From contig JBBSXG010000030.1 of the NCBI GenBank assembly GCA_038045885.1, positions 1 through 43,941 of the forward strand: a stretch of DNA of 43,941 nucleotides. Direction: 5' to 3'. A program made the position numbers and the translations under genes. A model generated the notes under the pieces. That model was not told the origin of the DNA. It made no database searches and saw nothing but the letters and a program-made list of their open reading frames with translations. This stretch comes from Nanobdellota archaeon (GTDB taxonomy: Archaea; Nanobdellota; Nanobdellia; SCGC-AAA011-G17; GW2011-AR20). Shown one piece after another: positions 83-26,448 of this stretch (within the stretch, counting starts at the first letter, position 1; every line of letters begins with the position of its first letter).

Positions 83-394
83 ATGAAAAAAATAAACATT
101 ATTTATTTAATGATATTAATAACTACAGTAATATTAATATTGCTCCCGCAGAGTTCTGCCGGAATTCTTGAATGGATAAATAAAACCCTAACAGGAAAAG
201 TAACCAGTTCTGTTGATGTAAATATAACTGTCGGAGCTGGAGGAGGAAACGCCCCCAACATAACTTTAGTATTCAATGCAACCCAGATTGGAGGAACACT
301 TAATGAAGGACCTATAAATACTAGTTTCATAATTAACTTTAGCAATTGCTTTATCATTTACAACCTTGAAAGCATCTCTTCTAGAAGTATGTAA
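83..394 (+). CDS. Secreted/surface protein N-terminal fragment (signal peptide, N-x-S/T sequon-rich), probably 3'-truncated
   Basis: ATG at 83. Hydrophobic core IIYLMILITTVILILLP followed by SSAG. Several N-x-S/T sequons (NKT, NIT, NAT, NTS, NFS). From about nt 344 the ORF is only the antisense of gatD. Confidence 0.3.
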   Translation: MKKINIIYLMILITTVILILLPQSSAGILEWINKTLTGKVTSSVDVNITVGAGGGNAPNITLVFNATQIGGTLNEGPINTSFIINFSNCFIIYNLESISSRSM

Positions 395-1120
395 CTTTCT
401 GGTTTTGCACGCAGGCAAAATTACACAAGTTTTATCTTCCATTGATTCATGCATGCAAATAGCAACTCCAGAAAAGTCTGTTTGTGCTATAAAAGTGCTC
501 GCGCATATTAGATTCATGGCAGCATCGCTTGATCCCCTGTCTGAACTTCTTTGAGATCCAACTAAAATAACTGGAATAGGACAATTTTCCAAAACAAAAC
601 TTAAAGCAGAACTTGCTACTGCCAAATTATCTGTCCCCATCCCTATAATAACTCCTTTAACTCCTTCTTTAATTTCTTTTTCAATTTCCTTAGCAAGTAT
701 ACCAAAATGCTTAAATCTTAAATCATCACTCCACATTTTTCTGACTAACTTGCTTCTAAAGTTTGCTATATTCTTAATTTCCGGGAACATTGCTAATAAT
801 TCTTCTGGAGTAAACGCTGAAGTAGTTGCTCCTGTCTTGTAATCTACCCTTGAAACTATTGTCCCGCCAGTATGCAAAATCGAAATTGTAGGCAAATTTT
901 TCTTTTGCACAATTTTTCCTATATTCTCTTTTTTTGCAGAAAATTTTTTTAGTGTAATAATTTTTTTTATTTTATTTTTATTTATTCCAATGTTGTACCC
1001 TGAATCAAGTTTTAAAACATAAATATCCTTATTTGTCGACGGAATTAAGCATCCTTTAAAATTTTCATCTTGAGTAGAAATCTCAACGTAATCTCCAACT
1101 TCACAAATATTTTTTTTCAT
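266..1120 (-). CDS. gatD: Glu-tRNA(Gln) amidotransferase subunit D (GatD), apparently 3'-truncated (possible pseudogene or assembly junction)
   Basis: AD1-like N-terminus, then asparaginase-type motifs HTGGTI, GMGTDN and KLHTSRRDAF..IAKV. Similarity ends near aa 262 (nt ~335). The ORF stops at 284 aa, whereas GatD proteins I know are about 400-440 aa. Confidence 0.75.
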   Translation of the reverse strand: MKKNICEVGDYVEISTQDENFKGCLIPSTNKDIYVLKLDSGYNIGINKNKIKKIITLKKFSAKKENIGKIVQKKNLPTISILHTGGTIVSRVDYKTGATTSAFTPEELLAMFPEIKNIANFRSKLVRKMWSDDLRFKHFGILAKEIEKEIKEGVKGVIIGMGTDNLAVASSALSFVLENCPIPVILVGSQRSSDRGSSDAAMNLICASTFIAQTDFSGVAICMHESMEDKTCVILPACKTRKLHTSRRDAFKVVNDKAIAKVNYETSIYRSFIKCSSNLGCIEY

Positions 1121-2568: not shown

Positions 2569-2648
2569 AAGGGCAGAGTAGACTTCTTTAACCCCCTTGA
2601 AATGCCCTTTCACGGCTGGCTCCAAAAACCAGCCTTTTTTCTTTTTTT
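2569..2648 (+). terminator. Two tandem hairpins followed by a T6-C-T7 run downstream of ftsZ (terminator-like or structured 3' element)
   Basis: AAGGGCA (2569-2575) pairs with TGCCCTT (2603-2609). GGCTGG (2614-2619) pairs with CCAGCC (2629-2634). This is followed by ttttttcttttttt. Confidence 0.45.
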
Positions 2649-3111
2649 AATTTATCGAAAACAAAACATCCTGCTCACAATCAACTTCTTTGAATTTAAA
2701 ATATTTCTTTAACAATTTTCTAAATTCATCAATTTTTGAAGATTTTTTTAAGAAAGTTATTGCAATGTTATTATTTGTTGAAACCCTTTTAATTTCTAAT
2801 AATGCTTTCTCCATGTTCTTAAAGTTATGAAAGGCTGTAACGCTTATTACTGTATTAAAAGATTTATCTGGAAAAGGCAATTTTTCGGCTTTTCCATGAA
2901 TTAAATTTCCTTCCTTGCTTTGTTTAATCATCTCCTTAGAATTATCTATTCCAATGCTAACAACATTAAAATAATTTGTACTTATTCCTGTGCCACATCC
3001 AATATCTAATAATAGGGGGACAATTTTTATATTTTTTTTTATGATTTCAAGTTTTTTAACCTGTTCTTCTTTATGAAGTTCATTATAAGATTTAGCTATT
3101 TTATTGTACAT
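2647..3111 (-). CDS. Small class I SAM-dependent methyltransferase (Methyltransf_11/UbiE-like)
   Basis: Motif I LLDIGCGTGIST and a post-I acidic residue (GIDNS). I prefer the ATG at 3109-3111 (MYNKIAKSYNELH...) over the ORF-track start at 3159, because the duplicated remnant at 3588-3640 begins with the same MYNK start. Confidence 0.75.
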   Translation of the reverse strand: MYNKIAKSYNELHKEEQVKKLEIIKKNIKIVPLLLDIGCGTGISTNYFNVVSIGIDNSKEMIKQSKEGNLIHGKAEKLPFPDKSFNTVISVTAFHNFKNMEKALLEIKRVSTNNNIAITFLKKSSKIDEFRKLLKKYFKFKEVDCEQDVLFSIN

Positions 3112-3117
3112 CTTAGT
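3065..3117. repeat. Direct repeat copy A (53 bp), covering the 5' end of the methyltransferase gene plus 6 nt upstream
   Basis: 48 of 53 nt are identical to 3588-3640 in the same orientation (aligned by hand). Confidence 0.9.
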
Positions 3118-3121
3118 TATA

Positions 3122-3129
3122 TTTATATA
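3122..3129 (+). promoter_or_regulatory. TATA box (TTTATATA) for the RelE-like gene
   Basis: Its centre lies 26.5 nt upstream of the ATG at 3152. The same spacing is seen at other genes in this window. Confidence 0.4.
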
Positions 3130-3151: not shown

Positions 3152-3388
3152 ATGTTCAAGATTTTTAAAACGAAAGAATTTGATGATAATTATAATAAGT
3201 TGGATAATTCTGAAAAGAAAAGGGCAGATAAAATAAGAGATCAATTATCAAAAAATGGGAATACTACAGGCAAACCTCTATCGGGCTTAAAATTTTTCAG
3301 GGAGAAAAAGTTTGACGGGAAAAGAATTTATTATTTAGTTTATAAAAATGATATAGCTAATTTAATAAAAGATCAAAACCATGCTTAG
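3152..3388 (+). CDS. RelE/ParE-superfamily toxin-like protein (short C-terminus)
   Basis: 78 aa. The pattern F..EFD..Y.KLD..EKKR..KIRDQL....TGKPLSG..FFREKKFDGKRIYYLVY resembles archaeal RelE-type mRNA interferases. Confidence 0.5.
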   Translation: MFKIFKTKEFDDNYNKLDNSEKKRADKIRDQLSKNGNTTGKPLSGLKFFREKKFDGKRIYYLVYKNDIANLIKDQNHA

Positions 3389-3389
3389 A

Positions 3390-3551
3390 TTACTTCCATT
3401 CAGTAACTCGGCCATGTTTTATATCTTCAAGACTTCTCTTTACTTGGTTAACCAAATCAGAATCAATTTTAGAATTCTTTTTTAGCATTTCATACTCTGC
3501 TAGGCTAATAGTTATTTTTTTCAGCATTTTTGTTCTTGATTTCATTTCCAT
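3390..3551 (-). CDS. 53-aa antitoxin-like small protein (not in the ORF track)
   Basis: Hand translation: MEMKSRTKMLKKITISLAEYEMLKKNSKIDSDLVNQVKRSLEDIKHGRVTEWK. The layout (I.ISL.EYE.L, then ...SLEDIK.GRV) is typical of small archaeal antitoxins. It has its own TATA 26.5 nt upstream. Confidence 0.4.
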   Translation of the reverse strand: MEMKSRTKMLKKITISLAEYEMLKKNSKIDSDLVNQVKRSLEDIKHGRVTEWK

Positions 3552-3587: not shown

Positions 3588-3640
3588 TCTTCTTTATGAA
3601 GTTCGTTATAGGATTTAGTTATTTTATTATACATTTTAGT
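3588..3640. repeat. Direct repeat copy B, a remnant of a methyltransferase 5' end (encodes MYNKITKSYNELHKEE then a stop on the minus strand)
   Basis: 48 of 53 nt are identical to 3065-3117. Three of the four differences inside the coding part are synonymous. Confidence 0.9.
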
Positions 3641-3648
3641 AAAACTTT

Positions 3649-4581
3649 TTATTTTCCGTTTTTCTTCAAAATTTCAACAATTTTGCAGGTTTGGCAAATT
3701 TCCTGCGAGCTTGGCTCTCCGCATATCTTACAAGAATTAATAGTAACAAAACCTTTAAAATTTTCTTTTAAAATAGGAAGCAACTCTAAAAAACTTGTAA
3801 TGATACTATGCTTAGTTCCAGGATATTTTGCCTCAATATTGTTTATCATATCTCTTATATCTCCTCTATAAGAATCTGAACTATGGGGGCATTCTAAGAA
3901 TTCTGTAGTCAATCCTTTTAAGAAAGCGTAAGTTGCAGTTTCTTTTTCAGTCATTAAATACAATGGCTTAATCCTCTTAATAAATCTTTTATCTTTTGTA
4001 ATACCTGTAATTGGCCCTAATCTAGCAGAGGTTTCTAAATTTCTCCTAAAATAATTCATTATAATTGTCTGTGATTCATCATCTAGATTATGGCCCGTAG
4101 CTAGTTTTGTAAATCCTAACTCTTTTGCTTTTTTATTTAATAAGTATCTTCTGAAAGGACCGCACATTGAACATGCTTTCATATCACTTTTCTTAAGAAA
4201 ATTATCCAAAGTATTTCCAAATTCTTCCTTATATGAAAAAATATGTAATTTAATATTATTGTCTTTGCAGAATTTTTTTGCTCTTTCTAAAGTCTTATCC
4301 CTGTAACCTTTAATTCCTTCATCAATTGCAATAGCCTCTAATTCAAATATTCTAATTTTATCTTTTAATTGTTTAATTATGCTTAATAACGATAATGAGT
4401 CTTTTCCGCCAGAAACAGCAACTCCAACTTTATCATTTCTTTCAATTAATTTATAGTCTTTAATTGTTTTTAGAACTTTTCTTTCAAAATATCTTGCAAA
4501 ATGCTGCCTGCATAATTTAATGTTATTGTTAGTTAAGTTAATTACAGGTTTTTCTAGACAATTTTTGCATGGCATGATCAA
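3649..4581 (-). CDS. PP-loop tRNA 2-thiolation enzyme, NcsA/Ncs6/TtuA/TtcA family
   Basis: PP-loop VAVSGGKDS, AIDEGIKGYRD, CSMCGPFRR and TGHNLDD. N-terminal CKNC...C..H and C-terminal CKIC...CQTC zinc-finger-like pairs. Confidence 0.85.
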   Translation of the reverse strand: MIMPCKNCLEKPVINLTNNNIKLCRQHFARYFERKVLKTIKDYKLIERNDKVGVAVSGGKDSLSLLSIIKQLKDKIRIFELEAIAIDEGIKGYRDKTLERAKKFCKDNNIKLHIFSYKEEFGNTLDNFLKKSDMKACSMCGPFRRYLLNKKAKELGFTKLATGHNLDDESQTIIMNYFRRNLETSARLGPITGITKDKRFIKRIKPLYLMTEKETATYAFLKGLTTEFLECPHSSDSYRGDIRDMINNIEAKYPGTKHSIITSFLELLPILKENFKGFVTINSCKICGEPSSQEICQTCKIVEILKKNGK

Positions 4582-4772
4582 CCGCCAGAGATAACACTTA
4601 ATAATTTTAACTCATCATTATTCTTTAAATTAGTCTCTAATAAAATTAGTTCATTGTTTCTTGCTAATAAAACAGTTTCAGGATTAATATTTAATTTAGT
4701 TAAAATTTCTCTAGCATTACTAGCTTCAACGTTTACAAATTTATTTTCTTTTTCAATAAAAACTTTTATCAT
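4578..4772 (-). CDS. Ubiquitin-like beta-grasp sulfur carrier (ThiS/MoaD/SAMP/TtuB-like) with a C-terminal Gly-Gly
   Basis: 64 aa ending in ...LLSVISGG. A 4-nt overlap links it to the downstream thiolase gene. Confidence 0.7.
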   Translation of the reverse strand: MIKVFIEKENKFVNVEASNAREILTKLNINPETVLLARNNELILLETNLKNNDELKLLSVISGG

Positions 4773-4794
4773 AAACTTTAATTAAAAATCAGAT

Positions 4795-5172
4795 TTATAA
4801 AATTAAGCTTTTTAAGTAAGTCCGACTTTCATACTCCAAAATAGCGTGCATGATTTGATACCTTATCTCTTTATTTACTTCAGGAAATCCAGTAAAACCT
4901 CCAATTTCAGAAAAAAATTCAGATTTACCAGCATATTTTATGTCCATATAATATTTTTTACCATATATAACATGTTCTTCCTTGCCTGGAGAAGCTATCC
5001 ATGAATCTGGAGATTGAAAATTTTCAACATGATCAAGAATTTCAACTTCGCCAGCATAAACTCTATTTTTAAGATCAGCTTCTGCGATATTTACACTAAT
5101 AACTTCACAGCCGAATGAGATTTTTTGATGAAAATCTAAATGCAAAAGTAATTTTTCTAAATTTTTTTCCAT
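4795..5172 (-). CDS. Hypothetical protein (orphan, 125 aa from the ATG) embedded in the sulfur-relay operon
   Basis: Open frame with no motif I recognise. The ORF-track start at 5190 is TTG. The first ATG is at 5170-5172 (MEKNLEKL...). Confidence 0.5.
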   Translation of the reverse strand: MEKNLEKLLLHLDFHQKISFGCEVISVNIAEADLKNRVYAGEVEILDHVENFQSPDSWIASPGKEEHVIYGKKYYMDIKYAGKSEFFSEIGGFTGFPEVNKEIRYQIMHAILEYESRTYLKSLIL

Positions 5173-5195
5173 TTTATACTTAAACTGCAAAAGAT

Positions 5196-5807
5196 TTATA
5201 AAACTTTTCTTAAATTTTTTAGTGAGTTTTCAAATAATTTATTAATATCAGCCTTACGCTCTTCTTTTTCTACAAAACTTACTTCACTTCTTGTAGCAGG
5301 ATGTTTTGGACCAAGAATGTTACACATTTCAGGTCCTTTAGATAATTCAAAAGTATCAAATTTCTTTGCTAGTTTAATTATTTGATCTTTGTCATAAGAT
5401 AATAAGGGATGTAAAATAGGAATGTTAACAACTTGTGTTATTGTGGTTAGATTAGATAAAGTTTGACTAGATACTTGCCCTAGATTGCAACCATCTAAGA
5501 TAAAATCACATTTTAATTTTTTAGCTAATTCTTCGGCTATTTTATACATCAATCTTCTTGAAATTATATAATAATATCTTGGATCACATCTCTTAACTAT
5601 TAATGAATGTTCTTCAGAATGATTAATCACATAAAATTCTTTAATATTTAGTTTTTTAACAAGTTCCAAGGATTTTTTCTCAGGCGTATCATCTGTAAAT
5701 GGTTCTAAGGAAAAGTGTAATGCAACTATTTCAAGTTTATCCTGCATCAATTTTATTGCAACAGCAGAATCAAAACCTCCAGAAAGCAATGCTAAGGCTC
5801 TTTTCAT
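5196..5807 (-). CDS. thiI: ThiI-like PP-loop ATPase domain only (tRNA 4-thiouridine synthase-like, no THUMP/NFLD domain)
   Basis: ALALLSGGFDSAVA, LGQVSSQTLSNL, HPLLSYDKDQII and PEMCNILGPKHPAT match the C-terminal catalytic half of ThiI. At 203 aa it is far shorter than the roughly 380-480 aa of full ThiI. Confidence 0.7.
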   Translation of the reverse strand: MKRALALLSGGFDSAVAIKLMQDKLEIVALHFSLEPFTDDTPEKKSLELVKKLNIKEFYVINHSEEHSLIVKRCDPRYYYIISRRLMYKIAEELAKKLKCDFILDGCNLGQVSSQTLSNLTTITQVVNIPILHPLLSYDKDQIIKLAKKFDTFELSKGPEMCNILGPKHPATRSEVSFVEKEERKADINKLFENSLKNLRKVL

Positions 5808-6163
5808 TTTACCTCAAAAAAATTTAACTTGCCTTTTAGAGGAATAGTGTTAATCCTTTTGGCATTTTTTAATATAAACCCATATTTAACAAATCCTTTA
5901 GCAAAATGTTTATCATAATCTTTACCAAAATCTTCTTGGTTTTTATATTCTTTAACATCAACTAGTTCAGCCTTTCCAATTAACTTTCCAAATTCCAAGT
6001 CTTTTAGTCCAAGTTCACCTGCATAATTCAAAGAAGTTTTATTATTTGAAGAATGCACAAAAAACTGTCCTCTAAACTTAGTTCTCCATTTTCTTGTCTC
6101 AATTACCTTCTTCCCATTAACAATTAATTCTGCCCAAGGTTGTTTTAAAGATAAAGCTTTCAT
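5804..6163 (-). CDS. ASCH domain protein (PUA-like fold, predicted RNA-binding)
   Basis: The N-terminus ALSLKQPWAELIVNGKKVIETRKW.T.FRG.FFVHSS is the typical ASCH signature. Confidence 0.7.
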   Translation of the reverse strand: MKALSLKQPWAELIVNGKKVIETRKWRTKFRGQFFVHSSNNKTSLNYAGELGLKDLEFGKLIGKAELVDVKEYKNQEDFGKDYDKHFAKGFVKYGFILKNAKRINTIPLKGKLNFFEVK

Positions 6164-6726
6164 ATTAATTTAAAACTCTTAAGTCCTTTAATTAACTGAA
6201 AATAATTTCTAAACAAGATAGAATTTATTTTTAATTTTCTTGCTGTTTTTATATTATCTTTTCTATCATCAATAAATAAACATTCTTCTGGTCTTAAGTT
6301 CAATTTTCTTAAAGTTAATTTATATATTGCGATGTAAGGTTTTCTCATTCTAAGCTTATAAGAATTAATTCCAAATAAAAATCCTTTGTATACTCCCTGT
6401 CTTTTTCTGACTATATAATGTTCTTTAAAAGTATTTGATAAATAGATTACTTTATATTTTTTATTTAATTTAAAAACCAGATTTTTAACTTTCTTATTAA
6501 TCATACTTTTTTTTGCGGCTTCAATATAAATTTTTCTTAAGTTTAAATTAGCATATTTCTTGTATATTTCTTCAAGTTGCGCCAATGTAATATTTCCGGA
6601 ATCAAGCATTTTATTATATTTCGCATAATACTTAATAAAAAATTTATTATTAACCTCTTTTCTAATTTCCTTGCCTAAGTTGTTTACGACAACCCCTCCA
6701 ATATCAAATATTATTGCTTTTATCAT
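6160..6726 (-). CDS. HAD-superfamily hydrolase (subfamily IA-like)
   Basis: Motif I IIFDIGGVV (D-x-G variant), and a later LSNT and FIDDRKDNI (motif IV). Confidence 0.65.
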   Translation of the reverse strand: MIKAIIFDIGGVVVNNLGKEIRKEVNNKFFIKYYAKYNKMLDSGNITLAQLEEIYKKYANLNLRKIYIEAAKKSMINKKVKNLVFKLNKKYKVIYLSNTFKEHYIVRKRQGVYKGFLFGINSYKLRMRKPYIAIYKLTLRKLNLRPEECLFIDDRKDNIKTARKLKINSILFRNYFQLIKGLKSFKLI

Positions 6727-7670
6727 TTTCCAGCATCGTAAATCTCGGTAGCTATTCTCATAACCTTATTATCCTCTCTTAAATGCTTAAAGATTATTTC
6801 TCCATTATTATTAACTATGACTTGTTCACCTTCTATTTCTAATAATAAAGTATTCCCCGCATCCCTTAATTCTCCAAAATTATCTTTTATCTTTTTCATA
6901 TTCAATTTTGTATTTGTTTTTACCATTAAAGTTGCTTTAGTTTTGCATAATTCAAGTTTAAATTTTTTATTTAATATTCCGCCATTACAAACTTCACATT
7001 CAGGATTTTTGTTTACCTTTATTCTCTCAAAAGAATTATTTTCTAGATTAACCCGGATTAAACTGTCTTCATAATTTTTATTCAATAATATCTTTAAACT
7101 TTCATTAACTTGTAAACTTGAGATTAAAGTTGTTATTGTATTTAAAACTCCTAAATCTTCACATCTGTCCATTGAATTAATATTCTCGTAAATGCAATTA
7201 AAGCATGCTTTTCCAGGAATTACATTAAAAAGATTTCCTTGATTTTCAATAGCAGCAGCGTGTATCCATGGAATCTTATGTTTAGAGCAGTAATCATTTA
7301 TCAAAAATCTTGTTTCTAGATTATCTGTGCAGTCTAAAACTAAGTCTGCATTAATTAAATTAATATTTTCATTCTTTAATTCAACATCATAAGCTAAAAT
7401 TTTTATTTGAGAATTAACCTTTTCAAGGTAATCTTTTGCAGCCAATGCCTTATTATTATTAATATCTTTCTCAGAGAAAATATTTTGCCTTTGTAGATTA
7501 GTCAAGTCAACTTTGTCATTATCGATTAACACTAAATTAACCCCTGCCCTTGCTAACAAGTTGCTTGAGTTAGTTCCTAAAGCTCCTAATCCAACTATAG
7601 CAACAATTTTTTGATTAAGTAATTCTTGACCCTTGCTTCCGATTAATGTTTCCTGCCTTGAATATCTCAT
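6723..7670 (-). CDS. E1-like adenylyltransferase of the ThiF/MoeB/UbaA/TtuC family with a C-terminal extension
   Basis: RYSRQ, IVGLGALGT, VLIDNDKVDLTNLQRQ, CFNC and CEVC pairs, and DRCEDLGVLN. Confidence 0.85.
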   Translation of the reverse strand: MRYSRQETLIGSKGQELLNQKIVAIVGLGALGTNSSNLLARAGVNLVLIDNDKVDLTNLQRQNIFSEKDINNNKALAAKDYLEKVNSQIKILAYDVELKNENINLINADLVLDCTDNLETRFLINDYCSKHKIPWIHAAAIENQGNLFNVIPGKACFNCIYENINSMDRCEDLGVLNTITTLISSLQVNESLKILLNKNYEDSLIRVNLENNSFERIKVNKNPECEVCNGGILNKKFKLELCKTKATLMVKTNTKLNMKKIKDNFGELRDAGNTLLLEIEGEQVIVNNNGEIIFKHLREDNKVMRIATEIYDAGK

Positions 7671-7692: not shown

Positions 7693-7700
7693 TTTTTAAA
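7693..7700. promoter_or_regulatory. Shared quasi-palindromic BRE/TATA element (AAGG-TTTTTAAA-CCTT) for divergent leaderless genes
   Basis: Its centre is 28.5 nt from the ATG at 7725 (+) and 26.5 nt from the ATG at 7670 (-). It is the only TATA-like element in the 54-bp spacer. Confidence 0.4.
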
Positions 7701-7724: not shown

Positions 7725-9602
7725 ATGCTACAGAGTTTATTAGATAAAGTAAAAAACTATAATGAAAATGCTAATTTTAGTTTAATTATAAGAGCGTATA
7801 ACTTTGCCGAAAAAGCACATTTTAATCAATTACGAGAGTCGGGAGAAGAACACCTGCAACATCTTCTCAATGCAAGCATGATTATAGCTGGGTTAAAGTT
7901 AGATGAAATTAGCATAGCCGCCACTTTATTACACGATGTTTTAGAAGATACAGATACAAACAAGGAAAAATTGGTAAGCGAATTTGGCGAAGAAGTTGCT
8001 AATCTAGTTGATGGTGTAACAAAAATAAGCAAGATAACAATTCCAGATTACAAGTCAAGACAGGTTGAAAATCTAAGAAAGATGTTGATAGCGAGTACTA
8101 AGGATATTCGAGTTATATTAATCAAACTAGCAGACAGATTGGATAATATGTCCTCATTAAAATATCTTAGAGAAGACAAGCAAAAAAGGATAGCACAAGA
8201 AACTATAGAAGTCTATGCTCCAATAGCCTATAGATTAGGATTAGCAAACATAAAATGGCAGTTAGAAGATCTAGCTTTTCGTTATCTAGAGCCAAAAATA
8301 TATCAGGAATTAAAAGAAAAAGTTAGTAAAAAGAGAGAAGAGAGAGAGTTACTGATTAATAAAGTAAAATCCTTGATAGAAAAAGAATTTAGAAAAAGAA
8401 ATTTGGATTTTGAAATATTTGGAAGAGTAAAACATTTCTATAGCATATATAAAAAAATAGTTTACAGGAATTATGAACTAGATAAGATGTATGATTTGAT
8501 TGCTTTAAGAATAATTACCAATGACATAAAAGAATGTTATGAAGTTCTTGGAATCATACACAATATGTTCAAGCCTGTAATGGATAGATTTAGGGATTAT
8601 ATTGCAAATCCAAAATCAAATATGTATCAAAGTTTACACACAATAGTTTTAGTAGATGATTATCCAATCGAGATTCAAATTAGAAGTAAGGAGATGCATA
8701 GAATATCTGAAGAAGGTATTGCGGCACACTGGCAGTATAAAAAATTAAAAAGCAATGAAGATTTCCAGAAAAAACTTGGGTTGGTCCAACAAATATTGAG
8801 CATTAAAGATTTATCAAGCCAGGATTTTCTAGAAGCATTAAAGGTTGATTTATTTGGAGATAATATATTTGTATTTACTCCAAAAAGCGATATAATCGAA
8901 GTTCCAAAAGATGCAACTGTCTTAGATTTTGCCTATGCTGTACATACTGCGTTGGGGAATAGCTGTGTTGGTGCAAGAGTAAATGGAAAATTTGTCAATA
9001 TTAAATACAACTTAAATAACGGTGACGTTGTTGATGTATTAACTGCAAAAAATCAAAAGCCTAGCAGAGACTGGTTAAAAATAGTAAAGTCTCAAAGGTC
9101 TAGGACAAAGATAATGCAAACTTTAAGATTACATGAAATAATCCCAGTTTCAAAATTAAAAAAATTTGAAGCTGTTAAAGATAATATTGTTGTAAGTGAT
9201 TTAAAAACAAATTTCATAAAATTAGCTAAATGTTGCGAGCCATTGCCAAACGATGAAATAGTTGGGCTGAGCACAAGAAATAACAAGATTACGGTTCATA
9301 AAAAAGACTGTGAACAAGCTAAAGACAATAAGATAAAGAAGATAAAAGTTGAATGGAATAATGAACGAGGATTAGTAGTTAATGTCAAAGTTTTAGCTCA
9401 TGACAGAATAGGATTGTTTGCAGACATCCTAAGCAATGTAGCCTCTTTGCATATTAATATAGAAAAAGCTGATTCTCATATAATTAATAAGGATTTAGCG
9501 GAATGTAATATTAAAATTAAGATGAATTCATTGCAAGATATTATTGATGTAATTGATAGAGTTAAAAAATTATCAGACGTAAGAAAAGTTAGCTTGAATT
9601 GA
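7725..9602 (+). CDS. rel: Long RelA/SpoT homologue (bifunctional-type (p)ppGpp synthetase/hydrolase: HD, synthetase, TGS and ACT domains)
   Basis: HD domain: H..QLRESGE, LLHDVLEDT, KLADRLDNM. Synthetase: GRVKHFYSIYKK, DLIALRIIT, DYIANPKSNMYQSLHT, EIQIRSKEMH..SEEGIAAHWQYK. TGS: IFVFTPKSDIIEVPKDATVLDFAYAVH. ACT-like C-terminus. Confidence 0.9.
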   Translation: MLQSLLDKVKNYNENANFSLIIRAYNFAEKAHFNQLRESGEEHLQHLLNASMIIAGLKLDEISIAATLLHDVLEDTDTNKEKLVSEFGEEVANLVDGVTKISKITIPDYKSRQVENLRKMLIASTKDIRVILIKLADRLDNMSSLKYLREDKQKRIAQETIEVYAPIAYRLGLANIKWQLEDLAFRYLEPKIYQELKEKVSKKREERELLINKVKSLIEKEFRKRNLDFEIFGRVKHFYSIYKKIVYRNYELDKMYDLIALRIITNDIKECYEVLGIIHNMFKPVMDRFRDYIANPKSNMYQSLHTIVLVDDYPIEIQIRSKEMHRISEEGIAAHWQYKKLKSNEDFQKKLGLVQQILSIKDLSSQDFLEALKVDLFGDNIFVFTPKSDIIEVPKDATVLDFAYAVHTALGNSCVGARVNGKFVNIKYNLNNGDVVDVLTAKNQKPSRDWLKIVKSQRSRTKIMQTLRLHEIIPVSKLKKFEAVKDNIVVSDLKTNFIKLAKCCEPLPNDEIVGLSTRNNKITVHKKDCEQAKDNKIKKIKVEWNNERGLVVNVKVLAHDRIGLFADILSNVASLHINIEKADSHIINKDLAECNIKIKMNSLQDIIDVIDRVKKLSDVRKVSLN

Positions 9603-26261: not shown

Positions 26262-26334
26262 AGCGTACGCCAGGACTCGAACCTGGGAATGGCTGCTCTG
26301 CAGGCAGCTTCGTTAGCCGCTTCGACACGTACGC
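26262..26334 (-). tRNA. tRNA-Cys (anticodon GCA)
   Basis: Hand-folded: acceptor GCGTACG/CGTACGC, anticodon stem GCTGC/GCAGC, loop CTGCAGA, T arm CCAGG-TTCGAGT-CCTGG, discriminator U. Confidence 0.9.
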
Positions 26335-26337
26335 AAA

Positions 26338-26424
26338 CGAGCCTGATGGGATTTGAACCCACGACCTCTTGCTTTCTCCAAATTTTAGAAGGCAAGCGTT
26401 CTATCCAGGCTGAACTACAGGCTC
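26338..26424 (-). tRNA. tRNA-Arg (anticodon TCT) with a 12-nt intron (26374-26385)
   Basis: Acceptor GAGCCTG/CAGGCTC, D arm GTTC-AGCCTGGATA-GAAC, anticodon stem CTTGC/GCAAG, loop CTTCTA[aaatttggagaa]A, T arm GTGGG-TTCAAAT-CCCAT. Intron AGAA can pair with loop TTCT (BHB-like). Confidence 0.88.
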
Positions 26425-26448
26425 ATTATTATTTTCCTTCCATGAAGA

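Follow-up and report, generated by a model that had tools for sequence, protein, structure and literature searches.

A row of seven genes in a groundwater archaeon could be a new seven-part machine or one more form of a known system for tRNA sulfur modification. It is the latter, since only a ubiquitin-like protein (Ubl), an E1-like enzyme, two thiolation enzymes and a methyltransferase are constant among related loci, whereas the HAD, ASCH and orphan genes vary.

The gene row and its junctions

The window (the whole 43,941-nt stretch of DNA that was analyzed) carries seven tightly packed minus-strand ORFs at 3649–7670 (ORF list). Pfam and NCBIfam searches showed the domain identities named in an earlier note on this DNA to be correct.

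7693–7700, minus: TATA-like box TTTAAAAA, 23–30 nt 5' of the E1 ATG; putative promoter element
6723–7670, minus: E1-like adenylyltransferase of the MoeB/ThiF/UbaA type, 315 aa (Pfam ThiF, 1e-59)
6723–6980, minus: C-terminal domain of the E1, residues 231–315, ~85 aa; invariant Cys242, FGxLRDA and GEIIFK
6160–6726, minus: HAD-IA phosphatase-like protein, 188 aa (Pfam Hydrolase, 5e-12; TIGR01509 over cut-off)
5804–6163, minus: ASCH (PUA-like) protein, 119 aa (Pfam ASCH, 6e-9); K19-x-x-E22-x-R24 motif
5196–5807, minus: PP-loop-only ThiI paralogue (ThiIs), 203 aa (Pfam ThiI, 5e-48)
4795–5172, minus: orphan protein, 125 aa from ATG, 131 aa from a TTG at 5190
4578–4772, minus: ThiS/SAMP2/TtuB-type ubiquitin-like sulfur carrier (Ubl), 64 aa (Pfam ThiS, 4e-8)
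3649–4581, minus: NcsA/TtuA-type [4Fe-4S] PP-loop 2-thiolase, 310 aa from TTG; likely start ATG 4575

The four 4-nt overlaps and the two gaps of 22 and 23 nt are as previously described. The overlap at 4578–4581 requires a TTG start for the thiolase ORF; the ATG at 4575 (MPCKNC), 2 nt past the Ubl stop, is the gene callers' choice, and relatives start at the same position with MPCKNC or MVCKNC. Elsewhere in the window, 3 of the 20 remaining same-strand junctions and 4 of the 20 between opposite strands show a 4-nt overlap as well. The 4 of 6 seen in the cluster is a modest enrichment over the other same-strand junctions (Fisher p = 0.03), and such overlaps are a compaction habit of the genome. 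The TTTAAAAA box falls in a 54-nt divergent spacer between the E1 and a RelA/SpoT gene, a position compatible with a leaderless archaeal transcript. In this strain, all seven genes could plausibly be co-transcribed from this putative E1 promoter.

A conserved backbone with variable cargo

The survey covered one clade, about 15 related Woesearchaeota loci with 57–95% protein identity. The conserved backbone order is E1, THUMP-less ThiI, Ubl, NcsA/TtuA, methyltransferase, counted in every relative with a ThiIs of at least 70% identity and up to the contig ends (L004, L005, L016–L023, L025, L027 and L037/L038); the complete AR20 genome retains Ubl, NcsA and methyltransferase. The proposed linkage of a Ubl/E1/2-thiolase trio to a ThiI-type PP-loop enzyme is borne out in every related locus recovered, and the HAD, ASCH and orphan genes lie outside the conserved part. 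The further claim that no such linkage had been described stands only in part. Archaeal neighborhoods joining ThiS to a PP-loop protein (arCOG00042) and E1 to ThiI have been known since 2010, when they were interpreted in terms of tRNA thiolation (Makarova and Koonin, 2010; PMC2948915).

ThiIs directly follows E1, with neither HAD nor ASCH, in L005, L021, L022 and L025. The variable slots of the relatives hold genes for acyl-ACP desaturase, KAS III-like, phosphatase-like, Lrp, MBL, NUDIX, dCTP deaminase-like, Fic-like, HD and membrane proteins, and a PIN toxin with its antitoxin, often on the opposite strand. Opposite-strand genes occur in the ThiI/Ubl, Ubl/NcsA and NcsA/methyltransferase intervals, so the row in these relatives cannot be a single transcript, and a single expression unit is no conserved trait of the locus. 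We favor the reading, drawn from sequence comparison, that this lineage carries its own version of a tRNA-thiolation locus conserved in Woesearchaeota (DPANN). Unrelated small genes would probably use the locus as a landing site, with HAD, ASCH and the orphan likely passengers outside the sulfur relay.

The proposed core pathway

The pathway is modeled on the characterized SAMP2/UbaA/NcsA, TtuB/TtuC/TtuA and Urm1/Uba4/Ncs6 systems; s2U34 formation requires SAMP2, UbaA and NcsA (PMC5372739). By this analogy, the E1 would act on the 64-aa Ubl by adenylating its C-terminal Gly-Gly, and addition of sulfur would yield a Ubl thiocarboxylate. In an anoxic groundwater organism, the sulfur would probably come from sulfide or from a persulfide carrier whose gene lies elsewhere. 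From the thiocarboxylate, sulfur would reach the [4Fe-4S] cluster of NcsA/TtuA, and this enzyme would adenylate and thiolate C2 of a tRNA uridine, most likely U34 of tRNA-Lys/Glu/Gln in a mesophile. The thiolase-adjacent methyltransferase would most likely modify the same tRNA or nucleoside, and ThiIs would probably carry out a second ATP-dependent thiolation with the same activated sulfur.

The adenylyltransferase part of the E1 (residues 1–230) precedes the conserved C-terminal domain. In an end-to-end alignment with E. coli MoeB (1JW9), the protein shares GLGALG, the two CxxC pairs and the Cys that precedes GV. The Ubl, 56–95% identical to its relatives by tblastn, ends in ISGG before the stop, as do all fully read relatives, AR20 included. 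The thiolase scored 243 bits (5e-72) against the NCBIfam NcsA model and 227 bits (2e-67) against Pyrococcus-type TtuA, both under the equivalog cut-offs. Its PDB matches were P. horikoshii TtuA (206 bits), M. maripaludis NcsA (171) and T. thermophilus TtuA (164), and its SGGKDS, CSMCG and ECP motifs align with their P. horikoshii TtuA counterparts. The slightly higher score for P. horikoshii TtuA (U54) than for M. maripaludis NcsA (U34) counts against a firm U34 assignment.

Full-length E1 is present in L004, L005, L016, L017 and L021, with partial full-type matches on the cut contigs L019, L022 and L025. In L020 and L037/L038 the adenylation domain is deleted and an 84-aa stand-alone ORF corresponds to the C-terminal domain, which has no sequence match in Pfam or the PDB. 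The dN/dS of this ORF is 0.07 between L020 and L037 (dS ~1.1), and its persistence under selection after loss of the adenylation domain is of interest in its own right. The lack of the adenylation domain in L020 and L037 counts against the proposed core pathway; as the remainder is kept, either another E1 serves the Ubl or the pathway there is E1-free.

A ThiI paralogue reduced to its PP-loop domain

ThiIs matches the short ThiI subfamily (NCBIfam PRK08349, 3e-41) and covers only positions 174–367 of the 373-position TIGR00342 model, so it has no THUMP part. It aligns with residues 190–392 of B. anthracis ThiI and 176–377 of T. maritima ThiI, retaining SGGFDS and Cys161, which aligns with Cys-Cys of these two enzymes. 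Pfam, NCBIfam and the alignments revealed no NFLD/THUMP, rhodanese domain or CXXC. Where the full-length CXXC-type ThiI of L006–L008 reads C-x-x-C-K-[RF]-LMYKIAEE, the window ThiIs reads YIISRRLMYKIAEE. The place of ThiIs between E1 and Ubl is retained, and wherever cargo is absent its translation is coupled to that of E1, with a 4-nt overlap at the cargo-free junction of L005. A ThiI paralogue without these features, yet coupled to an E1 and a Ubl, is itself of interest.

This raises the alternative that ThiIs is not a tRNA s4U8 synthetase and instead has another substrate or a role inside the sulfur relay; for example, ThiIs and the E1 C-terminal domain, with its invariant Cys, could load or pass sulfur to the Ubl. 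Every known RNA-docking or sulfur-accepting element is absent, whereas all characterized ThiI/TtuI enzymes have NFLD-THUMP (PMC9825150). Three additional cysteines (Cys74, Cys100 and Cys106) are conserved across all close relatives. The C-terminal domain of the E1, constrained as a stand-alone ORF, stays beside ASCH-ThiIs after the adenylation domain is lost. A domain scan of nearly all window ORFs of at least 90 aa recovered no JAMM, cysteine desulfurase, rhodanese, THUMP or Elp3 domain, which agrees with the earlier note for the first three. In Thermococcus kodakarensis, s4U levels are independent of any Ubl (PMC11323500), which argues against a general route of sulfur from Ubl to ThiI. We nevertheless regard this alternative as unlikely: ThiIs retains an intact PP-loop and the counterpart of the catalytic Cys of bacterial ThiI, it aligns from end to end with the tRNA-bound ThiI of T. 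maritima, and a second short ThiI (L024, 48% identity), which lacks Cys106, adjoins CysRS where E1 and Ubl are both absent.

HAD, ASCH and orphan genes

The earlier note had all seven proteins hard-wired into one dedicated machine. In such a machine ASCH, an RNA-binding PUA-like protein, would substitute for the missing THUMP of ThiI, HAD would clear a phosphorylated or adenylated by-product, and the orphan would be a new subunit or sulfur carrier. The 4-nt overlaps at E1/HAD, HAD/ASCH and ASCH/ThiIs point in this direction. So do the ASCH/ThiIs overlap retained in L004 and L037 and the adjacency of the two genes in L019 and L020. In addition, tRNA is both bound and modified by ASCH domains: there are ASCH proteins that remove the acetyl group of tRNA ac4C, and the K19/E22/R24 motif was compared with the catalytic Lys/Glu/Arg of these ac4C amidohydrolases/tRNA deacetylases (bioRxiv 10.64898/2026.02.27.708502). 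Between lineages, the dN/dS of HAD (0.09 versus L016) and ASCH (0.15) compares with 0.06–0.12 for core genes. Purifying selection on a par with that on the core and divergence in step with the locus indicate that both are functional long-term residents, and they may make a lineage-specific contribution to the thiolation pathway.

The distribution of these genes makes a seven-part machine quite improbable. HAD, a YihX-like phosphatase, is confined to the window, L016 and L017, and is an accessory gene acquired in one subclade, in part of which (L016 and L017) it occurs without ASCH. ASCH is found in L004, L018, L019, L020, L037 and AR20 but is absent from L005, L016, L017, L021, L022 and L025, a scatter over both clades of the ThiIs tree that implies at least three losses; AR20 has ASCH upstream of Ubl-NcsA-methyltransferase without any ThiI. 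The protein matches TRIP4 ASCH domain structures (1e-7) and has 352 homologues in DPANN (53–99% identity among the matches listed). Homologues of 57–70% identity in other DPANN adjoin unrelated TFIIS/YfbR-like or pyrimidine-salvage genes. ASCH is a housekeeping DPANN protein that has long been part of the locus yet is dispensable there.

The orphan has no Pfam or NCBIfam match, and its AlphaFold model (pLDDT 91) gave no Foldseek match. A library of 1.84 billion representatives yielded 17 matches (E <= 0.001), including two halves of its own truncated allele and a probably spurious 1673-aa repeat protein. Its homologues neighbor GrpE/HTH, rhomboid or Obg genes, never sulfur-relay genes. At this locus it is confined to this population, and codon 53 has changed from CAA to TAA (Q53*) in sibling assemblies L001 and L003. 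It is a recent, decaying insertion and lineage-specific cargo. Between the window and siblings L001–L003, the core genes differ by 22 synonymous and 1 non-synonymous changes, whereas HAD, ASCH and orphan together differ by 0 and 7, Q53* included (Fisher p = 0.008 even with the NcsA recombination patch left out).

Use of the E1 and Ubl for thiamine-thiazole or molybdopterin synthesis, or for SAMPylation, with the PP-loop enzymes mere neighbors, is highly improbable: the top NCBIfam scores of the E1 are to ThiF and MoeB, the Ubl matches the ThiS family and archaeal SAMPs serve in conjugation as well as in sulfur transfer as carriers (PMC2948915; PMC11323500), but those scores all fall under the equivalog cut-offs, no thiamine or molybdopterin gene (ThiG/ThiH/ThiE/ThiC, MoaE/MoaA) or JAMM gene lies in the window or the relatives' flanks, every locus has its Ubl gene in the same place, flanked by two PP-loop thiolase genes, and archaeal ThiS genes occur without association to thiamine genes (PMC2948915).

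The methyltransferase and its displaced junction

The backbone of the proposed thiolation locus ends in a methyltransferase gene, which in the window is separated from the thiolase gene by an insertion.

3588–3652, minus: duplicated methyltransferase 5' end at the old junction, encoding MYNKITKSYNELHKEE and a stop; local alignment to 3065–3128
3152–3551, both strands: inserted cargo between the repeat copies, two small ORFs
3390–3551, minus: 53-aa ORF in the insert (ORF list)
3152–3388, plus: 78-aa toxin-like ORF in the insert (ORF list; 109 aa in L001)
2647–3111, minus: small class I SAM methyltransferase (Methyltransf_11), 154 aa (Pfam, 3e-18)

Aligned over 65 columns, the two repeat copies show 8 mismatches and a single 1-nt gap, and the ATG of the remnant lies 14 nt beyond the thiolase stop. 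In L016, L018, L020, AR20 and L037 the methyltransferase gene directly follows NcsA with a gap of 5–17 nt or overlaps it. Both observations bear out the earlier suggestion: it originally lay directly after the thiolase gene. A Trm9-like role found no support, as the solved-structure matches, profile search included, contained no Trm9 chain. The insert ORFs have no Pfam or NCBIfam family match; their size and arrangement suggest a toxin-antitoxin pair. The methyltransferase is 76–90% identical in each locus whose contig reaches the gene, and its invariant pairing with NcsA across loci is of interest.

Gene Content and Junctions of the Locus

An earlier note on this DNA had listed seven minus-strand ORFs between 3649 and 7670 and assigned domains to them. 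The ORF list reproduced all seven exactly, and every domain call was confirmed by Pfam and NCBIfam; the orphan has no family. The genes are as follows.

6723–7670, minus strand, E1-like adenylyltransferase (E1)
6160–6726, minus strand, HAD-IA hydrolase
5804–6163, minus strand, ASCH protein
5196–5807, minus strand, short ThiI (a PP-loop-only, THUMP-less ThiI paralogue)
4795–5172, minus strand, orphan
4578–4772, minus strand, Ubl (a ThiS-type ubiquitin-like sulfur carrier)
3649–4581, minus strand, NcsA/TtuA-type thiolase
2647–3111, downstream of the thiolase, methyltransferase

The window is AT-rich (27–33% G+C) and contains the archaeal markers Trm56, GatD, Nre, TFIIE-alpha, L15e, and L10P. Identical or near-identical contigs come from Hainich groundwater (well H51, 0.1-µm fraction; MAG GCA_964366965.1), and the nearest genome records carry the label Candidatus Woesearchaeota. 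Contig L001, a sibling assembly from the same population, is near-identical to the window except at nucleotides 1–330, which fail to align with it, and its GatD ORF encodes 431 aa as against 284 aa in the window (266–1120, minus strand); the difference reflects either structural variation between strains or an assembly join.

Four of the six junctions had been described as 4-nt overlaps and the other two as gaps of 22–23 nt. This geometry holds, except that the Ubl/thiolase overlap requires a TTG start. The gene callers' start is an ATG 6 nt downstream of the TTG (protein sequence MPCKNC), and relatives start with MPCKNC or MVCKNC there. Overlaps of 4 nt are a general feature of this compact genome: they are found at 3 of the 20 same-strand junctions outside the cluster and at 4 of the 20 opposite-strand ones, which allow no translational coupling. 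TATA-like words occur everywhere at 27% G+C.

A Conserved Backbone with Interchangeable Inserts

Genome and metagenome collections were surveyed with the short ThiI and the ASCH protein as anchors, and roughly 15 independent related loci were recovered, their proteins sharing 57–95% identity with those of the window. The order E1, short ThiI, Ubl, NcsA/TtuA thiolase, methyltransferase was found in every locus, to the extent of its contig. In relatives, the neighbors of this backbone are constant as well: a divergent RelA/SpoT gene on one side, FtsZ/GatD on the other. E1 and ThiI overlap by 4 nt in the related Woesearchaeota locus L005, which has nothing inserted there, and ThiI and Ubl lie 26–27 nt apart when no insert separates them. 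The spaces between backbone genes hold varied inserts, many of them on the opposite strand (see table). Four further loci (L006–L008 and L026) were considered as distant relatives and rejected: they are ordinary full-length THUMP-ThiI genes, matched through the common LMYKIAEE motif. They gave no synteny information and served to place the CXXC position.

Table. Inserts between backbone genes in the window and in related Woesearchaeota loci
ThiI–Ubl: orphan (window); unrelated 111-aa ORF (L004); membrane-like protein of 200–250 aa, opposite strand (L020, L021, L027, L037). Loci with opposite-strand genes: L020, L021, L027, L037
Ubl–thiolase: acyl-ACP desaturase (L004); KAS III-like enzyme (L016); PIN toxin and antitoxin (L018); phosphatase-like protein (L005, L022). 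Loci with opposite-strand genes: L004, L005, L016, L018, L022
Thiolase–methyltransferase: small-ORF insert (window); Lrp and MBL (L004); NUDIX, dCTP-deaminase-like, and Fic-like proteins (L005); HD protein (L027); 108-aa ORF (L023). Loci with opposite-strand genes: L004, L005

The cluster had been read as one seven-gene expression unit. Its uninterrupted same-strand arrangement is not kept in relatives, which have opposite-strand inserts at three junctions. Because inserts, many on the opposite strand, split the backbone, its genes must be separately transcribable in these organisms, and transcription of all seven genes as one unit would be specific to the window strain at most. The proposal that HAD, ASCH, and the orphan are hard-wired into the relay is refuted by their patchy occurrence among relatives.

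The same patchiness could be explained by an ancestral seven-gene state followed by loss. We rejected this for the HAD gene, which is restricted to a single subclade of the ThiI tree (the window, L016, and L017), and for the orphan, which among related loci is confined to the window's population. For ASCH, ancestral presence followed by loss is likely. The gene is present in L004, L018, L019, L020, L037/L038, and AR20 (the complete Woesearchaeota genome CP010426) and absent from L005, L016, L017, L021, L022, and L025; mapped onto the ThiI tree, this distribution requires that ASCH was present early and was lost three times or more. In AR20, ASCH lies upstream of Ubl–NcsA–methyltransferase, without ThiI or E1. 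There (3648–5725), a reverse-transcriptase gene (RVT_1, 346 aa) that overlaps ASCH by 4 nt occupies the E1 position, and an unannotated 217-aa protein holds that of ThiI.

HAD and ASCH are real genes that have diverged in step with the locus, with dN/dS between lineages of 0.09 and 0.15, respectively (0.06–0.12 for core genes). Within the population, comparison of the window with sibling assemblies L001–L003 gave 22 synonymous and 1 non-synonymous differences in core genes, and 0 synonymous and 7 non-synonymous or nonsense differences in HAD, ASCH, and orphan combined. The split (Fisher p = 0.008 with the NcsA recombination patch removed; the counts are small) fits a weaker present-day constraint on the accessory genes, small as the numbers are. 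The passenger status of these three genes guards against over-reading a tidy "operon," and the locus illustrates that in very compact DPANN genomes conserved modules and interchangeable cargo stand side by side in the gene order. The remaining interest lies in the coupling of a minimal ThiI to E1 and Ubl, in the C-terminal domain of E1 as a separable unit, and in the invariant thiolase–methyltransferase pair.

The long RelA/SpoT homologue of the window (7725–9602, plus strand; HD, synthetase, TGS, and ACT domains) is divergent from E1, with a spacer of 54 nt between the two genes. Synteny holds in all relatives; in L037/L038 the gene is split into two ORFs. RSH genes are reported in ~42% of Woesearchaeota (PMC8407392).

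The Accessory Proteins

The translated HAD gene shows all four HAD motifs (FDIGGV, LSN, RKP, and FIDDR), and the protein scored 55 bits against TIGR01509 (cut-off 29.4 bits). The Asp+2 position is occupied by Gly, as it is in the YihX family.

The ASCH protein matched Pfam ASCH above the cut-off (5.9e-9) and TRIP4 ASCH structures at 1e-7. Its motif, G17-K-K19-V-I-E22-T-R24, has the K-x-x-E-x-R spacing of the catalytic Lys23/Glu26/Arg28 in the T. thermophilus ASCH protein; the Lys and Glu of this motif are catalytic in ASCH proteins that deacetylate tRNA ac4C (bioRxiv 10.64898/2026.02.27.708502). The family is strongly conserved in DPANN, where it has 352 matches, with 53–99% identity among the 120 listed. 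Homologues at 57–70% identity adjoin TFIIS-like/YfbR-like or pyrimidine-salvage genes, not ThiI or Ubl. At one such locus (L035, 5328–7251), a 70%-identical ASCH gene lies between genes for a nucleoside phosphorylase and an amidohydrolase and one for OMP decarboxylase, a pyrimidine-salvage setting that fits a role related to ac4C or cytidine. The ASCH amidohydrolases E. coli YqfB, T. thermophilus TTHA0113, and human TRIP4/EOLA1 belong to the same Pfam family, and the TRIP4 and TTHA0113 structures match. The DPANN subfamily differs in being a stand-alone 119-aa protein whose place in a thiolation locus is not conserved, and amidohydrolase function is a candidate activity for it.

A word-indexed search gave no match for the orphan. 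An exhaustive HMMER search of 1.84 billion representatives gave 17 matches at E ≤ 0.001, two of which are the halves of its own truncated allele (in this allele, seen in two sibling assemblies of the population, codon 53 is TAA in place of CAA) and one a large repeat protein (1673 aa), probably a spurious hit. Family members are ~110–140 aa long; their neighborhoods, retrieved by profile search and contig look-ups, contain unrelated genes: GrpE/HTH, rhomboid, and Obg. The orphan represents a genuine but rare protein family. Its AlphaFold model is confident (pLDDT 91) and has a five-stranded sheet and a long C-terminal helix, and Foldseek searches of the PDB and BFVD returned only insignificant matches (best E values 0.39 and 0.085, TM <0.45). 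Helix-grip and levivirus-coat-like assignments were discarded as superficial matches with insignificant scores; the modeled structure may be a new fold.

Ubl, Thiolase, and the Proposed Relay

The 64-aa Ubl matched Pfam ThiS (3.7e-8; 34 bits against a cut-off of 22.5 bits) and ends ...LLSVISGG, with Gly-Gly directly before the stop codon in the window, L004, L005, and AR20. The thiolase gave full-length alignments with both P. horikoshii TtuA and M. maripaludis NcsA. Its PP-loop motif VAVSGGKDS is the same in P. horikoshii TtuA, and its CSMCG and ECP motifs align with CSYCG and ECP of that protein (PH0300). We take this CxxC + C set to be the [4Fe-4S] ligands, as in published TtuA structures. 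Zinc-finger cysteines are present at the N terminus (CKNC...C..H) and C terminus (CKICG...CQTC), with a weak match to Pfam zn-ribbon_14. The NCBIfam scores for NcsA (243 bits, cut-off 500) and TtuA (227 bits, cut-off 450) are close, and in the PDB the best match, PH0300 (206 bits), is followed by M. maripaludis NcsA (171 bits); these scores do not separate NcsA from TtuA. In a mesophile, U34 is a more likely target than U54. Among the expected s2U34 substrates is tRNA-Glu(UUC). In the window its gene adjoins that of tRNA-Cys(GCA) (26262–26425, minus strand), and its length of 89 nt suggests an intron.

A stretch of 184 nt in the thiolase gene (4153–4336) has 19 synonymous and 1 non-synonymous differences from L001 and L003, the rest of the locus being nearly identical. 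The patch looks like recombination from a diverged strain.

By analogy with SAMP2/UbaA/NcsA, TtuB/TtuC/TtuA, and Urm1/Uba4/Ncs6 (PMC5372739, PMC11323500), E1 would adenylate the C terminus of Ubl, the adenylated Ubl would be converted to a thiocarboxylate, and this would feed the iron-sulfur thiolase. Domain scans of the window ORFs found no JAMM, desulfurase, or rhodanese genes. Sulfide has a precedent as direct sulfur donor in methanogens, and the locus bears on how sulfur enters tRNA thiolation in archaea that have neither cysteine desulfurases nor rhodanese domains (PMC5372739).

A Separable C-Terminal Domain of E1

Residues 3–227 of E1 matched Pfam ThiF (1e-59), and the protein aligned end to end with E. 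coli MoeB. GLGALG corresponds to GLGGLG of MoeB (GxGxxG), the two CxxC pairs of the structural zinc site (CFNC and CEVC) to CYRC and CEVC, and Cys169 (RCEDLGV) to the Cys of TCVEAGV. Both CxxC pairs and Cys169 are kept in six relatives. No rhodanese domain was found by Pfam, and residues 231–315 have neither a Pfam nor a PDB sequence match.

The last 85 residues (window 6723–6980) form a C-terminal domain that is very strongly conserved, with an invariant Cys242 and the motifs FGxLRDA and GEIIFK. Pfam gave no match to this domain and a PDB profile search only noise; a single-sequence model reached a pLDDT of 59. L020 and L037/L038 have lost the adenylation domain by deletion but keep the C-terminal domain as an 84-aa ORF with its own ATG (L020, 3852–4106; L037, 5750–6004), which overlaps ASCH and is followed by ThiI. 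The dN/dS of 0.07 (dS ~1.1) between the L020 and L037 lineages indicates that the domain is kept for its own sake. The most interesting possibility is that it is a partner of the THUMP-less ThiI, or a sulfur-relay element that replaces a rhodanese domain.

A ThiI Reduced to Its Catalytic Domain

The short ThiI matched Pfam ThiI (4.7e-48) and contains the PP-loop motif LLSGGFDS. Its alignment with tRNA-bound T. maritima ThiI spans the entire catalytic domain. Cys161 (GPEMCNILGPKHPATR), conserved in all relatives, falls in the column that holds the second Cys of the B. anthracis ThiI motif DCCTVF and the Cys of the T. maritima ThiI motif DSCVFF; this column corresponds to the catalytic Cys344 of E. 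coli ThiI. The protein begins 7 residues ahead of SGGFDS and covers only positions 174–367 of TIGR00342 and residues 190–392 of 2C5S. The N-terminal ferredoxin-like and THUMP (NFLD-THUMP) tRNA-binding domains were not found in it, and domain scans detected no THUMP domain anywhere in the window. It has no rhodanese domain and no CXXC + C cluster site: Tyr80 and Ser83 occupy the C-x-x-C position of full-length archaeal ThiI (L006–L008). Conserved cysteines specific to the clade are Cys74, Cys100, and Cys106.

NFLD-THUMP is present in all characterized ThiI/TtuI enzymes, which fall into classes by sulfur element: a rhodanese domain (E. coli), a CXXC + C [4Fe-4S] site (M. maripaludis and P. furiosus), or neither (T. 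maritima and B. anthracis) (PMC9825150). Homology between the short ThiI and the PP-loop domain of these U8 sulfurases extends through the entire domain and includes SGGxDS and the catalytic Cys, and in having neither sulfur element the protein resembles the T. maritima/B. anthracis class. It differs from the characterized enzymes in lacking the ferredoxin-like and THUMP domains (203 aa in all, PRK08349-type), in its genomic coupling to E1 and Ubl, and in the three added cysteines. PRK08349, the NCBIfam model for such short forms, is titled "hypothetical protein," and our literature search, in a limited collection of papers, found no description of a THUMP-less ThiI. The locus bears on how ThiI works without a rhodanese domain or CXXC site (PMC9825150).

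Because the short ThiI has a fixed place between E1 and Ubl, it may draw on the same activated sulfur. Formation of s4U in T. kodakarensis is independent of all Ubls (PMC11323500), which counts against Ubl-to-ThiI sulfur transfer as a general rule. A fuller reading makes the minimal ThiI a Ubl-thiocarboxylate-dependent thiolase that shares the E1/Ubl relay with NcsA/TtuA and has the 85-aa C-terminal domain of E1 as its new partner module, either a sulfur-relay or a substrate-docking element. We consider this unlikely as it stands. If true, it would be the first Ubl-dependent ThiI-type pathway and would give a new answer to how sulfur is supplied to ThiI enzymes that have neither rhodanese domain nor CXXC.

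Another lineage (L024, 6893–8997) has a THUMP-less ThiI that is 48% identical and overlaps a cysteinyl-tRNA synthetase gene by 4 nt, with no E1 or Ubl nearby. On the low-coverage contig of L025 (700–1283), the short ThiI is broken into two frames at about residues 90–97, by either a frameshift or a sequencing error.

Comparison with Known Systems

The locus shares with SAMP2/UbaA/NcsA of Haloferax volcanii and with eukaryotic Urm1/Uba4/Ncs6–Ncs2 a ThiS-type Ubl with Gly-Gly, a MoeB-like E1 (GxGxxG, two CxxC pairs, and a conserved Cys), and a PP-loop 2-thiolase with CxxC + C and zinc fingers. The haloarchaeal genes are scattered (PMC2948915), whereas those of the window are clustered; a ThiI-type PP-loop gene and a small methyltransferase are further fixed members of the cluster, which has no JAMM protease nearby. 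Uba4 has a rhodanese domain; the window E1 has none and carries an unrelated 85-aa C-terminal domain. The logic of Thermus thermophilus TtuA/TtuB/TtuC and of Pyrococcus TtuA (m5s2U54) is the same, from Ubl thiocarboxylate to [4Fe-4S] enzyme, but the window host is a mesophilic groundwater DPANN archaeon, in which thermostabilization by s2U54 is not expected.

The earlier note knew of no prior description of such a cluster. Two of its pairwise associations are on record: Makarova and Koonin (2010) described archaeal ThiS–PP-loop (arCOG00042, the NcsA group) and E1–ThiI neighborhoods and read them as tRNA thiolation (PMC2948915). What is new is that the two pairs stand together in a single row, to which a THUMP-less ThiI and a methyltransferase are added, in DPANN genomes of a later-sequenced phylum that were unavailable in 2010. 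The clade offers a compact, testable system in which one E1, one Ubl, a 2-thiolase, a stripped-down ThiI, and a methyltransferase have stayed together over substantial divergence.

The Methyltransferase and Its Remnant

The methyltransferase, a generic Methyltransf_11 protein, is the thiolase's most constant partner, directly downstream of it or overlapping it, AR20 included. A reasonable inference is that it would act on the same tRNA nucleoside as the thiolase, and the pair could account for a methylation of thiolated tRNA uridines that is unassigned in archaea. The Trm9-like role on which the earlier note had speculated found no backing, as no Trm9 chain was among the PDB matches (single sequence, E ≤ 1e-5; 8-sequence profile, E ≤ 1e-3); the best matches were generic Methyltransf_11 proteins and Bud23. 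An MnmM-like identity was likewise unsupported by the PDB searches.

A remnant of the methyltransferase gene had been proposed at its old junction with the thiolase and was indeed found there: a 65-nt copy of the 5′ end, with 8 mismatches and one 1-nt gap, lies 14 nt past the thiolase stop codon. The two 5′-end copies bracket two small ORFs, one toxin-like and the adjacent one of 53 aa, neither of which matched a family. The toxin-like ORF (3152–3388, plus strand) encodes 78 aa, compared with 109 aa in L001 (12420–12749), owing to an in-frame deletion of 93 nt.
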